A stretch of 64,000 nucleotides of DNA from an uncultured Chloroflexia bacterium (GTDB taxonomy: Bacteria > Chloroflexota > Anaerolineae > B4-G1 > SLSP01), in contig CAVVUS010000001.1 in assembly GCA_963751345.1 (NCBI GenBank), positions 15,235 through 79,234 of the forward strand, given 5' to 3'. How positions within the stretch are numbered: position 1 is the first letter of the stretch; every line of letters begins with the position of its first letter. This document shows positions 10,766 to 21,648 of this stretch, piece by piece. Position numbers and translations under genes: made by a program. Below the pieces are notes generated by a model. The model did no database searches. It was not told the origin of the DNA and saw nothing but the letters and a program-made list of their open reading frames with translations.

Positions 10766-11519
10766 CTACCCCTCCAACTTGCAGATCGCGCCCGCGCGCT
10801 TGACCCGCAGTGCGACCGTCTCCAGGACGCGGAAGCAGTGGTCAAGTCCGTCGTTGCCTGTCATAGGCTGTCACGAGATCCTGCCCCACCACGAGGTCGA
10901 AATTATAGGGTGCCAGTGAGAGGACCATGCCCTGTCCATCGCCCAACAGTTGAGAGCGATAGATGCCGCCCTCGGCAACATCCTTGATAAGGTCTCCGAC
11001 CAGCCGCCCCATCCCCTGTGAGACACGCTGGGTACTCACGTAGAGATCGGGGCTCAGGATGACCGCATAGGGACCATAGAAATCATCAGAGAAGAGTGCC
11101 TCGGTCGCCGCCACGACGCTCGCCAGGGGCCCTTCCGCCTCCCCCCAGTTTCCAAGGGACACGCTCTTGTCGGCTATATCCCACAGACCGCCAAGAACCA
11201 TCTTGTCCTCAGCCTTGGCGCAGGCCATCGCTGCCTGTGCAGCGGGGCCGAGCTCCAGCGGCAGACCCAACCTGCGGCTCGCCTCGATGTCGCGCCACTT
11301 GAGTACGAATTCCTCACTGATTACTTCGATCGAGATCTGATCTCGATTCTCTCCGGACCCGACAGGAATGACCTCCATCCCCGCCCCGAATGGGCCGACA
11401 AGGTCGAGCAGCCGCCGCCCGACCAAGAACTGGCGTGCGGCACTCACAACGACCTGGTCGATCGCCTCCCACTCCGAATCCGACAATGGAACAGCACTCC
11501 GCATGAGATAGTCAGCCAT
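10766..11519 (-). CDS. family 1 encapsulin shell protein (Linocin M18 type), one-base frameshift near 10860
   Basis: MADYLMR..PLSDSEWEAID, GRRLLDLVGPFGAG, F.LKWRDIE, AAMACAKAED, GPYAVILSP.LY, DLVVGQDLVTAY. After the frameshift it continues GNDGLDHCFRVLETVALRVKRAGAICKLEG* (stop 10766-10768); about 250 aa when repaired. Confidence 0.93.
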
Positions 11520-11535
11520 TGGTATCCTCCTGATT

Positions 11536-12456
11536 CTACTTCAAACTACCTACGGTTAGTTCATCCTTGGATGACGCGGCCTCGGGTTCCGCCTCTTCAG
11601 CCGTCTCCATCAATTCCTTCAGCACCGTGGTCAGCAGCCCGTCCCGCGTGACGATGTTGTCGATCTCTACCTTGAGAGATTCGTGCTTCGCGATCTCCGG
11701 GTCCTGGCTGAAGGCAATCAAGCGCTCCTGTGCCTCCTCGGTCAAGGCGAGGTCCGAGGTCAGCGCTGACATGGGCGAACTGCTGAGATCCACACCCGGG
11801 TAGTCAAAGGGGAGCTCCTCGCCCGCATCGGCGACCTCCTCGGCGAAATGCGACATATTCTTCATATGCCGCATAGCCGTCAGCTCGAGCTCACTGCCTA
11901 CAGGACAGACCGGCTCACCCAGCACAAACGCCTGGCGCAGGTGCTGAAGCACGAGTTTGTAGTGAGCATCTACCTCCGTGTGGAACCGGACGATCATGTC
12001 GGGTGAGAAACTGGGCTCATCGAAGAGCAACGGCTCCTCGCCTTGGGGCCCCAGCTTCTCCAACCACATCTCGAACCTGCGCTGATGGGTGACGGACTCC
12101 CAACCGAGCTGGTTGAGCACACGCTTGAGCTCACGCTCCTCAACCTGATCCGCCTGCTCGGCGTACATCTTCACCAGACCCGCCTCCCACTCGATGTAGG
12201 ATCGCAGAAGAGAGGCATTTGAGGCCCCGTCATAGGGATAGATGCCCTTCTCCATAAGCGGCTCTTCGCCCTGTTCCCCGATCTCGTCCCCAAGCCAATC
12301 CATGTGCCACATCTCTTCGCGGGCCGTAGAGAGCAGCATCTCACCGAACGGCGTGGTCTCGCCCACCTGATAGGCGTGAATCAGGTAGCGAAGAATCGAG
12401 GCGTGCTCATCCGCCAGATCCTTGTTAAGCATCTCGATAAACGCTTGTCGATCCAT
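11536..12456 (-). CDS. tandem ferritin-like (bacterioferritin-like) encapsulin cargo protein
   Basis: Domain 1 has E17, Y24, E48-M49-x-H51, E91, Y98, H124. Domain 2 is a degenerate repeat. An acidic linker leads to C-terminal DELTVGSLK; 16 bp upstream of the shell gene. Confidence 0.88.
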   Translation of the reverse strand: MDRQAFIEMLNKDLADEHASILRYLIHAYQVGETTPFGEMLLSTAREEMWHMDWLGDEIGEQGEEPLMEKGIYPYDGASNASLLRSYIEWEAGLVKMYAEQADQVEERELKRVLNQLGWESVTHQRRFEMWLEKLGPQGEEPLLFDEPSFSPDMIVRFHTEVDAHYKLVLQHLRQAFVLGEPVCPVGSELELTAMRHMKNMSHFAEEVADAGEELPFDYPGVDLSSSPMSALTSDLALTEEAQERLIAFSQDPEIAKHESLKVEIDNIVTRDGLLTTVLKELMETAEEAEPEAASSKDELTVGSLK

Positions 12457-12684: not shown

Positions 12685-14121
12685 ATGATGGAGCAACTCT
12701 ACCGAGAGCGCCTGACCCGCTATCTGACCGCGATGCGCAACGAAAAACCGGATATGGTCCCCATCCGGCCGTTCGTCGCCGAGTTCACCGCCAAGTACGC
12801 CGGCTTTACGTGTCAGGATGTCACCCACGACTACAACAAAGCGTTTATCGCCGCACGCAAGTGCGCCGCCGACTTCGACTGGGATGCGGTCGTCTCGAAT
12901 ATGGTCTACGTGTGGACCGGGCTGACGCAGGCCATCGGTCTGACCTACTATGGCGTCCCCGGCCTTGACGTCCCGCCCGACACCGGATTCCAGTACAGGG
13001 AGCCGAGTGAAGAGAATGCCTTCATGAAGGCGGACGAGTATGATGAGTTGATCGACGACCCTACCGCCTTCCTCTACAACACGTGGCTCCCGCGGGTCTC
13101 GCAGGACATCCGCCCGATGGGCGCCCCGACATCGTATCGCAACAACCTGGCCCTCGTGAAAGGTGCTACGGCGATGGCGAATTACTTCGCCGCGTACGGC
13201 CCGCACGTCGACCTGCTGCGGACCGAGAGCGGCACCGTCTCCGCCATCGCGGGCATCTTCAAGGCGCCCTTTGACATCCTGGCCGACAAGCTCCGCGGCT
13301 ACATCGGGCTGACGATGGACATGGTCGAGCAGCCGGACAAGGTCCTCAAGGCCTGCGAGGCGTTGATGCCCCACCTCTACAACACGGCCTTGACGTCGTC
13401 CGATCCCAACCACCAGGTGCCCATCGGGTACTGGATGCACCGCGGCGGCATCCCGTTCGTCTCGAGAGGACAGTTCGAGTCACACTATTGGCCTACGGTG
13501 AGGCCCATCATCGAGGAGCTGTGGCGAAACGGGCACCAAACGCTCTTCTACGCTGAGGGAGACTGGGGTCACCACCTCAACAGCTTCACCGAACTTCCCG
13601 ACCACAGCATTGTCTATCACGTGGACCGGGGCGATATCTTCAAGACGCAGGAAGTACTGGGGCACAAGTTCTGCCTGAGCGGCGGCATTCCCAACTTTGA
13701 GCTCGCCTACGGCACGCCCAAGCAGGTGCGCGACATTGTCAAGAAGGTCATCGACGGCGTAGCACAGGATGGCGGCTACATCATGGATGCCAGCGCGATC
13801 ATGCAGAACGACACGTCCATCGAGAACCTCAAGGCGATGACGGATGCCACGCGGGAGTACGGCGTCTACTCCGGGGTCGCCTCCCGGCTTGCCGATCTCG
13901 ACGAGCAGGTCGCGCCACCACAGGACGCCGTCTTCGGCGAGAGCTATGGCATGCCCGATACCTCGGACCTCAAGGTCCCCGCCGGACAGTGCATCCCGTG
14001 GGCTGAGAAGCGCAAGGAGATCCCCGAGATCTCCGGGGACGTGGACCTCGCCCAGCGCATCTGGGAGGAGGTCGATGCCCCGGCCAACAGCTTTATCTGG
14101 CAGGTCCTGCTCTCGTTCTGA
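12685..14121 (+). CDS. uroporphyrinogen decarboxylase-fold protein (MtaA/CmuA-like family)
   Basis: PDMVP, MKADEYDELIDDP, PFDILADKLRG, FYAEG.W, CLSGG, DGGYIM, ENLKAM; probable start ATG 12685. Confidence 0.8.
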   Translation: MMEQLYRERLTRYLTAMRNEKPDMVPIRPFVAEFTAKYAGFTCQDVTHDYNKAFIAARKCAADFDWDAVVSNMVYVWTGLTQAIGLTYYGVPGLDVPPDTGFQYREPSEENAFMKADEYDELIDDPTAFLYNTWLPRVSQDIRPMGAPTSYRNNLALVKGATAMANYFAAYGPHVDLLRTESGTVSAIAGIFKAPFDILADKLRGYIGLTMDMVEQPDKVLKACEALMPHLYNTALTSSDPNHQVPIGYWMHRGGIPFVSRGQFESHYWPTVRPIIEELWRNGHQTLFYAEGDWGHHLNSFTELPDHSIVYHVDRGDIFKTQEVLGHKFCLSGGIPNFELAYGTPKQVRDIVKKVIDGVAQDGGYIMDASAIMQNDTSIENLKAMTDATREYGVYSGVASRLADLDEQVAPPQDAVFGESYGMPDTSDLKVPAGQCIPWAEKRKEIPEISGDVDLAQRIWEEVDAPANSFIWQVLLSF

Positions 14122-19531: not shown

Positions 19532-20783
19532 TCAGTGTTTGAAGCTTCGCTGCCCGGTGAAGACCATAGTCGCGCCGGCCTCGTTCACCGCTTCGATCAC
19601 CTCAAAATCGCGTATGCGATCCACCCGGCTGAATCACGGCGGTGACGCCGTCACTCAGCCCAACATCCACGCCATCACGGAATGGGAAGAAGGCATCGGA
19701 GACCATCACGGCGCCCTTGAGCCCGCCGTGCTCTGCCTGCACCTCCACGTCGATCTCGGCTTGCAGGTCGGGCGCTAGGAAGCGATAGGACGTCTGGTGT
19801 TGGGTATAGGCGAGCCGTTCTGCCATGTTGCGGTGCGCCTTCTCGCGGGCGATCTCGGCGACGCCGACGCGATCCTGCTCGCCCGCACCGATGCCCACCG
19901 TGACCCCGTCTTTGGCATAGAGCACCGAATTGGAGGTCACGCCTGCCTCGACCATCCACCCAAAGAGCATATCGTCGATCTCCGCGGGTGTCGGCGCCCG
20001 GTCCACCTTGTAGGTCTGCCCCCGGTACACCGTCTCGGCCAACTGCAGGTCCTCCGCCGTCCGCGTCCGGGGCACAAACGAGAGCTGCGCGATGACCGCG
20101 CCATCGATGAGGCTCTTGAAGTCGACAAAGCGCTCTGAACGATACGACTGCAGCCGCGCGATGTTACCGATGCGCATGATGCGCAGGTTCTTGCGCGCCG
20201 AGAGGATGTCGACGGTCCCCTCCTCATACTCGGGCGCCACCACAACCTCAGCGTACCGCTCCGCAATCGCCTCGGCCGTAGCCCTGTCGACCGACCGGTT
20301 GACCGCCACGCATCCGCCGAAAGCGGCAATGTGGTCGGCCAGGTCGGCCTTGACGTAGGCGTCGTCGAGCGTCGCACCGAAGGCTACACCGGCAGGGTTG
20401 TTGTGCTTCATCACCGCCGCCGTCGGGCGATCGACGGGCAAAAAGCGCAGGATGTTCAGGGCATTGTCGGCATCCGTCAGGTTGATCTTGCCCGGATGCT
20501 TGCCGAATTGCAGCAGTTCCGCGTCTGATACCAGGTATCGACCGGGGGAGATCGTCGTTACCTCACCCAGCGTCAGGTTACCGTTGATGAGCTTATAGAG
20601 TGCAGCTTCCTGGCCGGGGTTCTCCCCATAGCGGAGCCCCCGACGCTCACCCTCGATCTCCCACGTCACCTTCTCATATACCAGCGTCGATCGGCCCTCA
20701 TCGAAGACGAAGCTGATCTCCATCCGCTCCGGAAAGTGGTCACCCAGTATCGTACGATAGGCCTTCTTCAGATCTTCTGGCAT
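19532..20783 (-). CDS. purH: AICAR transformylase half of PurH (stand-alone; frameshift near 19615)
   Basis: LRYGENPGQ.AA, KHNNPAG, AFGG, EVVVAP, SNSV, GAGEQDR, SDAFFPFRDG, IQPGGS, then ..FTGQRSFKH*. Confidence 0.9.
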
Positions 20784-20839
20784 GAGCTCCTCCTTGGATG
20801 TACACAAGCCCTGTGAAAGTTTCGCAAACCTCCGTCAGA

Positions 20840-21524
20840 TTAGTCTTTCAGTGAATACGCGTCCGGTACTTCAGCCGGGTCCTGCGCGTCCAGATAGGCG
20901 GCGATGGCGGTATCATATGCCGCCGTGTGGCCAAACGCCTTTCGTGCATAGCGGAAGCGCGTCGGCGAGGTCGAGCGTGCCATTCCCCGCTGCCAGCTCG
21001 GTAAGCAGCACGGGGTAGTCCGCCGGGTCGACAACGGGCACAACACGAAGGTAGTTCTTCGCTGCAGCGCGCAGCATGCACGGGCCGCCAATGTCGATAT
21101 TGGCCCGCGCCTGCTCGACGGTTACACCCTCTCTGGCCACGGTGGCGGCGAAGGGATAGAGATTCACGACGACCATATCGATAGGCAGCGCCCGCGTCCT
21201 GGCGAGGTCGGCCTGATGTGCCTCGTTGTAGGTCTCGGTCAGCAGCCCCAAGTAGATCTTGAAGTCCAGCGTCTTCACCAGCCCGCCCTGGGTCTCGGGT
21301 TGCCCCGTATAGGCCGAGACAGGCGTCAGATGCGTGGCGGCCCCGTCCGTACCCAGAATCTCGGCCAGGCTGCGATAGGTGCCGCCTGTCGAGTAAAAGT
21401 GCATATGGGGGTTGATCTTGAGCAACCCCGGTATCAGTAAGTCGAGGCCCGACTTGTCGGATACGCTCACCAGCGCGCGCTCCACCCGGACCTGCGCGTC
21501 CACCTTTTCCACAAAGTTCACCAT
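20840..21524 (-). CDS. purH: IMP cyclohydrolase (MGS-like) half of PurH (stand-alone; frameshift near 20950)
   Basis: RALVSVSDKSG, STGGT, TGQPE..GGLVKTL, DMVVVNLYPF, IDIGGP.MLRAAAKN, AFGHTAAYD.AI. Confidence 0.9.
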
Positions 21525-21648
21525 CGCGCGCCTCCACCCGTAACACAAAGAGGGGGAACGCTCACTCCAATTGCGCGCGCTCCCCCCTGCCAAGTAACCG
21601 TTGAGTCCAGAACAACATCCACACCCGCCGGCCGATATCCGGCGGGCG

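Follow-up and report, generated by a model that had tools for sequence, protein, structure and literature searches.

The protein encoded at 11536..12456 on the minus strand of the window, by which we mean the whole stretch of 64,000 nucleotides analysed here, is a double ferritin-like protein (DFLP) and core cargo of a family 1 encapsulin, in a Chloroflexota variant. It has the two ferritin bundles in one chain and the methionine pair of DFLPs, and its halves group with the N and C domains of that family. As in core cargo of family 1 encapsulins, it carries a C-terminal peptide and its gene lies directly upstream of the shell gene. The sub-clade it belongs to is mostly from Anaerolineae, and its additions are a serine in domain 1 and a domain 2 without canonical di-iron ligands. 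We consider it fairly probable that this is an encapsulin-targeted DFLP in which domain 1 oxidises Fe(II), a non-catalytic domain 2 donates a methionine, heme is scavenged and the shell stores iron.

A sequence-only reading of the window had proposed a single-chain, asymmetric bacterioferritin dimer whose fused bundles, one catalytic and one repurposed, could share an intramolecular bis-Met heme site. The design so proposed is mostly known, and as a concept the cargo adds little: the headline idea, including the bis-Met site, is already in print for the DFLP family.

The cargo gene and its fold

Two sets of listed homologues were aligned. For the close set, a homologue search gave 206 matches, of which the best 120 were taken; minus the window's own protein, 119 remained. 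For the distant set, a profile search gave 300 matches, and among the best 150 we aligned the 81 new ones of at least 255 amino acids. The features of the cargo are as follows.

11536..12456, minus strand: DFLP cargo gene, 306 amino acids (open reading frame; PF00210 at E 1.2e-5; 9VIW at E 9.6e-17, two stretches)
12049..12456, minus strand: N-terminal four-helix bundle (domain 1), residues 1-136, with E17-E48-H51-E91-S121-H124 plus Y24, E47 and E120 (alignment, AlphaFold2, fold match)
12310..12312, minus strand: Met49, corresponding to TmDFLP M48, putative heme ligand (9VIW alignment; 116 of 116 non-truncated listed homologues)
12094..12096, minus strand: Ser121, at the second bridging-Glu position (119 of 119 listed homologues; 22 of 22 genome loci)
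11590..12009, minus strand: C-terminal four-helix bundle (domain 2), residues 150-289, with H165-H197-N200-T239-D272-L275 and H172 at the Tyr position (alignment, AlphaFold2, fold match, domain tree)
11905..11907, minus strand: Cys184, at the TmDFLP C184 position (the C-domain Met follows 14 residues later in both proteins; Cys in 97 of 119 listed homologues)
11863..11865, minus strand: Met198, corresponding to TmDFLP M198, putative heme ligand (119 of 119 listed homologues)
11542..11559, minus strand: encapsulin targeting peptide LTVGSL, residues 300-305, C-terminal (sequence; 118 of 119 listed homologues)

The open reading frame, read from 12456 to 11536, has an AGGAGG-type ribosome site upstream. 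In Pfam, PF00210 covers residues 7-133 only, and domain 2 has no match at E 0.01. The best solved-structure match is 9VIW, the structure of TmDFLP, with E 9.6e-17 for the single sequence and 8.3e-28 for the profile.

That the protein consists of two aligning bacterioferritin-like repeats, as first read from the letters, is borne out by several comparisons. The N-half and C-half are homologous by BLASTP (E 4e-6, 35% over 46 amino acids) in the register TAREEMWHMDWL / TAMRHMKNMSHF, and by profile-profile comparison (E 5.5e-5). An AlphaFold2 model based on a 120-sequence alignment has two four-helix bundles (pLDDT 90.2, pTM 0.87), and both halves superpose on bacterioferritin chains with Z about 17-18 and an rmsd of 2.0-2.6 Å over 135-145 residues. 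The listed fold-search matches are single-bundle ferritin-family chains, found for each half, and 9VIW is absent among them.

The C-terminus, LTVGSLK, fits the core-cargo peptide pattern [LF]-x-[VI]-G-x-L. Among the open reading frames of at least 60 codons in the host genome, the cargo alone ends in this motif, and it is also the sole PF00210 match in this 93%-complete genome.

The encapsulin gene and its surroundings

The cargo gene forms an operon with the shell gene.

10766..11519, minus strand: shell gene of a family 1 encapsulin, lying 16 nt 3' of the cargo gene (PF04454 at E 1.9e-44; NF041155 over its cut-off)

It is the single encapsulin gene found in the host genome. As assembled, an extra base near 10860-10862 makes its frame stop at 10842, giving 225 amino acids and a loss of about 30 C-terminal residues. 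An error of assembly is the probable cause of this +1 frameshift, because the base is absent in the closest relative (L002) and in all three covering contigs, from two public runs; a strain-private mutation could also account for it. A promoter and terminator scan of the locus gave nothing on the coding strand. Contigs about 94-99% alike from an RNA run (X8, with a small share) cover both genes, which we do not read as a sign of expression or habitat.

Of 23 related loci from GTDB genomes, 22 have an encapsulin directly downstream of the cargo homologue, with uninterrupted frames, and these 22 are from Anaerolineae or other Chloroflexota. The 23rd, from a Syntrophus aciditrophicus MAG (L024), has no encapsulin gene within the locus DNA examined; at 1269-2063 it encodes an EEHESH N domain together with a Lys-filled C domain of the KKQ type.

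Some DFLP-encapsulin pairs adjoin genes for rubrerythrin, superoxide reductase, flavodiiron, rubredoxin-reductase-like or ferritin-like/rubrerythrin-family proteins. Such redox-type neighbours lie both up- and downstream in L018-L020 and downstream in L009, L021 and L023 (families checked in L019, L020 and L021). The rubrerythrin, superoxide reductase, flavodiiron and rubredoxin-reductase-like neighbours of these relatives fit a role in handling iron and oxidative stress.

URO-D-family, sigma-70 and sulfatase neighbours were considered as parts of the system and rejected; they recur in 6, 11 and 8 of the 23 loci, respectively. In the window the first of these is a divergent URO-D/MtaA-family gene at 12685-14121 (plus strand), adjacent in 6 of 23 loci and probably outside the system. 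In 5 of 23 loci (L004, L006, L007, L008 and L011) a pterin-4a-carbinolamine dehydratase gene lies 3' of the encapsulin gene (family checked in L004). Elsewhere in the window, two adjacent open reading frames at 19602-21593 (minus strand) resemble what we take to be separate parts of a PurH-like protein.

One shared duplication

In a tree that treats the domains of 30 selected proteins separately, one branch divides N from C domains (SH-aLRT 98), and the two halves of the cargo fall on the expected sides. An independent duplication of the cargo halves is rejected by this tree, which contains the ESHEEH-type relatives P0180, P0198 and P0246 and was built without TmDFLP. The clade profile aligned to 9VIW through the N domain only, so the link of the C domain to DFLPs rests on the alignment of distant DFLPs, the gene comparison and the domain tree. 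Both this tree and the full-length tree used below were built by a quick method, and their branch supports are SH-aLRT values alone.

Domain 1: a probable di-iron site with serine

The first reading placed E17, Y24, E48, H51, E91 and H124, together with Ser121, in repeat 1, and all of them are where it put them. The ligand positions of domain 1 thus read E17-E48-H51-E91-S121-H124, with Y24 and M49 also present. In E. coli bacterioferritin the di-iron ligands are E18, E51, H54, E94, E127 and H130 (PMC4771812), and the canonical site has two bridging glutamates. In the cargo the E127 position holds Ser121, which in the pairwise alignment with 9VIW faces a Glu numbered E122 in the preprint on DFLPs. 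Serine is unable to bridge two irons, and the domain 1 site is neither a canonical bacterioferritin nor a canonical ferritin site.

The pattern belongs to the whole clade. EEHESH is present in 114 of 114 complete N domains of the listed close homologues and S121 in all 119, while five of the six ligands and Y24 are invariant. Further, E47 is found in 116 of 116, and position 120 is E in 116 and D in 3 of the 119. Among the 81 listed distant DFLPs the N-domain motif is EEHEEH in 64 and EEHESH in 5, with one more in truncated form.

In the full-length tree the main EEHESH proteins form one clade (support 99). Its first branches, P0126 and P0122, have an intact C domain; thereafter the KKQVEQ lineage is sister to the cargo lineage (supports 99, 99 and 96, the last for the sister pairing). 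Two further Ser-bearing proteins sit elsewhere in the tree. In this tree Ser121 predates the loss in domain 2, and therefore the site containing it was retained after the other site had been lost.

There is a precedent for such a centre: E. coli FtnA functions with a single bridging Glu and has the site-C residues Glu49 and Glu126 (PMC7762939). By register, E47 and E120 of the cargo would be at offsets matching these two, while His124 occupies the position of FtnA Glu130, where FtnA has Glu. Since this precedent exists, and since the five ligands, Y24, E47 and E120 stayed near-invariant after the loss in domain 2, domain 1 is probably still ferroxidase-like. We infer catalysis here, and do not state it more firmly, because Ser replaces one of the bridging glutamates.

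Domain 2: di-iron ligands lost, domain under purifying selection

At the ligand positions of domain 2 the cargo has H165, H197, N200, T239, D272 and L275; the Tyr position is taken by H172 and the Met position by M198. An intact site is found in none of the 119 listed close homologues, in agreement with the ligand loss that the sequence-only reading described for repeat 2. Two details of that description change: H172, one of its three histidines, occupies the redox-Tyr position rather than that of a metal ligand, and where the cargo has Asn in place of the canonical His, 112 of the 119 listed homologues have His.

The C-domain motifs of the 119 are EHHTEL (55), HHHTNL (28), QHHTNL (22), QHNTNL (5) and others (9). 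H197, T239 and L275 are each found in all 119, and many other domain 2 columns are invariant as well. In the listed distant DFLPs the C domain is EEHEEH in 31 of 81.

Loss of the ligands could in principle be neutral decay of repeat 2 in the host genome, the "simple decay" that had been named as the alternative. Domain 2 evolves faster than domain 1 and lacks a Pfam match at E 0.01, and in the assembly the neighbouring encapsulin gene carries a frameshift. However, the frameshift base is missing from all three covering contigs, and the loss with its many invariant columns is shared by every listed close homologue. For domain 1 the 56 unsaturated pairs out of 253 have a median dN/dS of 0.16; for domain 2 the 74 unsaturated pairs out of 253 have a median of 0.24 and a maximum of 0.44 (Nei-Gojobori on 23 genes, with non-independent pairs). 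Domain 2 is under purifying selection and is not decaying privately, and domain 1 is the more constrained of the two. Neutral decay is thus largely refuted by conservation and dN/dS, and we regard it as highly improbable.

Another possibility is that domain 2 has been repurposed: next to the heme, the remnant of site A (165, 197, 200 and 272) would form a His-rich site for one metal (Fe, Zn or Cu). His197 in 119, His200 in 112 and His172 in 106 of the 119 listed homologues would suit such a site, and the combination E165/H197/H200/E272, present in 55 of them, is a plausible 2-His-carboxylate set. A Glu-to-His change at 197 also recurs among the listed distant DFLPs, elsewhere in the tree. Against this, the ligand set is unstable across the clade and the cargo itself is without His200. 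Position 165 is E, Q, H or N in 55, 34, 29 and 1 of the 119; the H165/H172/H197 triad of the first reading occurs together in only 18, and in 5 homologues His197 is the sole one kept among the six ligand positions. H165 and H172, seven residues apart on one helix, would by the geometry of a helix be too far from each other to share a metal. Positions 165 and 272 covary (E/E in 55, Q or H paired with N in 57 of the listed homologues), a pattern more readily explained by a network of hydrogen bonds than by a constant set of ligands, and the sister lineage has Lys among the corresponding ligand positions (KKQVEQ). The His-metal proposal for repeat 2 is weak at best on these counts and we find it unlikely; at most a site-A remnant seems to be left in domain 2 of the cargo.

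The six distant DFLPs of the 81 with His just before the C-domain Met (P0150, P0159, P0172, P0173, P0177 and P0218) have mostly lost their site-B ligands. The change at 197 in this separate lineage is an apparent convergence.

The methionine pair and the heme supply of the host

The claim that the heme-position Met is kept in both halves holds well beyond the window. Both Met49 and Met198 are present in 116 of 119 listed close homologues, the other three being truncated N-terminally before Met49, and in 78 of 81 listed distant DFLPs, including ones with intact sites. This conservation supports the view of a single-chain mimic of a bacterioferritin dimer with a putative intramolecular bis-Met site, a view that the DFLP preprint already sets out (10.1101/2025.09.13.676036).

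ALAD (HemB) was found in none of 22 genomes of the genus, that is, the host (G000) and 21 others (G001-G021), 15 of which carry the cargo gene. Among 26 genomes matching the cargo profile only one has ALAD, as a weak match, and the host genome yielded no ferrochelatase. With ALAD and ferrochelatase missing, heme would have to be imported, and the host is likely a heme auxotroph. Two cytochrome c assembly genes (C41) are encoded by the host, as are multiheme c-type proteins carrying 17, 15 and 10 CxxCH motifs (C10, C41); import of heme is therefore likely, and a heme site stays feasible. Although apparently unable to make heme, these hosts do use it.

Two readings of the Met pair depart from the preferred one. 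In the first, domain 1 is a ferroxidase and the methionines merely pack the interface, with little or no heme in vivo. This is in line with hosts that appear unable to make heme, and with the preprint, where TmDFLP crystals are heme-free and heme in solution is sub-stoichiometric (10.1101/2025.09.13.676036). However, near-invariance over such deep divergence (78 of 81 listed) is unusual for packing alone, two DFLPs in the same preprint co-purified with heme, and the host encodes heme-using proteins. We hold this reading to be improbable.

In the second, neither bundle is a ferroxidase and the protein binds or buffers heme inside the shell of a heme-auxotrophic host. All 119 listed homologues lack a canonical EEHEEH in either half while both methionines are invariant, and, with ALAD in 0 of 22 genus genomes, the presence in the host of genes for cytochrome c assembly and for multiheme c-type proteins (up to 17 CxxCH motifs) points the same way. 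Yet the invariance of five of the six domain 1 ligands and Y24 is hard to explain without metal binding, and DFLPs with intact sites keep the methionines just as strictly (78 of 81 listed). Further, one heme per 34 kDa chain makes poor storage, and the heme would need a way across the shell. All in all this is quite improbable. We would give slightly more room, though still as a doubtful proposal, to a bolder picture for these heme-auxotrophic Anaerolineae: either the encapsulin is a store for scavenged heme, canonical ferroxidase chemistry having been left in both halves, or a Ser-modified di-iron site and a convergent His-rich single-metal site are wired through one intramolecular bis-Met heme.

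Proposed mechanism

In the preferred reading, iron oxidation with a non-catalytic domain 2, the targeting peptide would pack the DFLP into the encapsulin shell, where a di-iron site in domain 1, with just one bridging Glu, would bind and oxidise Fe(II). Domain 2 would be a non-catalytic scaffold that completes the pseudo-dimer and gives the second Met and the dimer cysteine. The bundles are predicted to pack together so that Met49 and Met198 clamp one scavenged heme, which, as in bacterioferritin, may act as an electron relay for iron release, and the shell would hold the iron mineral. Domain packing, heme binding, the Cys184 dimer, ferroxidase activity and the expectation that no cage is formed are inferred here by analogy with TmDFLP and CaDFLP.

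The value of the sub-clade is that of a useful natural test: there is no canonical di-iron site in either half, and still it is strongly conserved. An assay would show if a bacterioferritin-type centre works with Ser at the bridging position, and also the real occupancy of the DFLP bis-Met site in hosts that seemingly import heme.

Comparison with known systems

The 2025 preprint in which 9VIW is TmDFLP covers 157 DFLPs (bioRxiv 10.1101/2025.09.13.676036). In its account the N and C domains pack antiparallel, as in a bacterioferritin dimer, and M48 and M198 are 100% conserved and form a putative intramolecular heme site. Two purified DFLPs co-purified with about 3% and 8% heme, the crystal of TmDFLP being heme-free; TmDFLP oxidises iron and forms C184-linked dimers. 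N domains have EEHEEH in 79.6% of cases and C domains in 57.3%, with ESHEEH and KKQVEQ as the commonest deviations, and a targeting peptide is present in 56 DFLPs, for which encapsulin targeting is described.

Like TmDFLP and CaDFLP as described there, the cargo has two bundles derived from bacterioferritin by one shared duplication, a more degenerate C domain and a C-terminal targeting peptide, and no second ferritin-domain protein was found in its genome. Met49, Met198 and Cys184 correspond to M48, M198 and C184 of TmDFLP, and the position of the gene upstream of a family 1 encapsulin is that of CaDFLP. It differs in its N-domain motif, EEHESH instead of EEHEEH, and in the C-domain motif of its clade, [EQH]-H-[HN]-T-[END]-L, instead of the main-text variants ESHEEH and KKQVEQ. 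Further, its host is apparently a heme auxotroph, and the cargo clade is known here from sequence.

The ligand pattern of the sub-clade is unnamed in the main text of the preprint, where "EEHESH" and "Anaerolin" do not occur. Literature searches for the variant returned just this preprint and a 2021 survey, and the cargo ligand pattern was not found. The list of 157 annotated DFLPs in its supplements may already include the cargo clade, and, given that it names KKQVEQ, the preprint probably has close kin in its data set.

The 2021 survey lists a two-bundle "Bfr" cargo of family 1 encapsulins in Chloroflexi and other phyla (PMC8346489). The cargo resembles this class in its two four-helix bundles and C-terminal targeting peptide. 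For "Bfr" cargo the survey assumed a shell within a shell, while the later work on DFLPs found dimers.

With E. coli bacterioferritin and mini-bacterioferritin (9QQ4) the cargo shares the fold (Z 17-18 per domain), the Met at the two-fold heme position and, in domain 1, five of the six di-iron ligands plus the Tyr. In contrast to these proteins, and to canonical bacterioferritin with its single-bundle subunit, it has two bundles in a single 306-residue chain, Ser at the Glu127 position and a domain 2 without a di-iron site, and assembly into a cage would not be expected.

Finally, the Magnetospirillum pair Bfr1/Bfr2 includes in Bfr2 a heme-binding subunit without a ferroxidase centre (PMC6529640). 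As described for that pair, the work would be split in the cargo between a catalytic bundle and one without such a centre. However, in Magnetospirillum the Met is absent from the catalytic subunit and heme lies between two non-catalytic subunits, whereas the bundles of the cargo are fused and both keep their Met.
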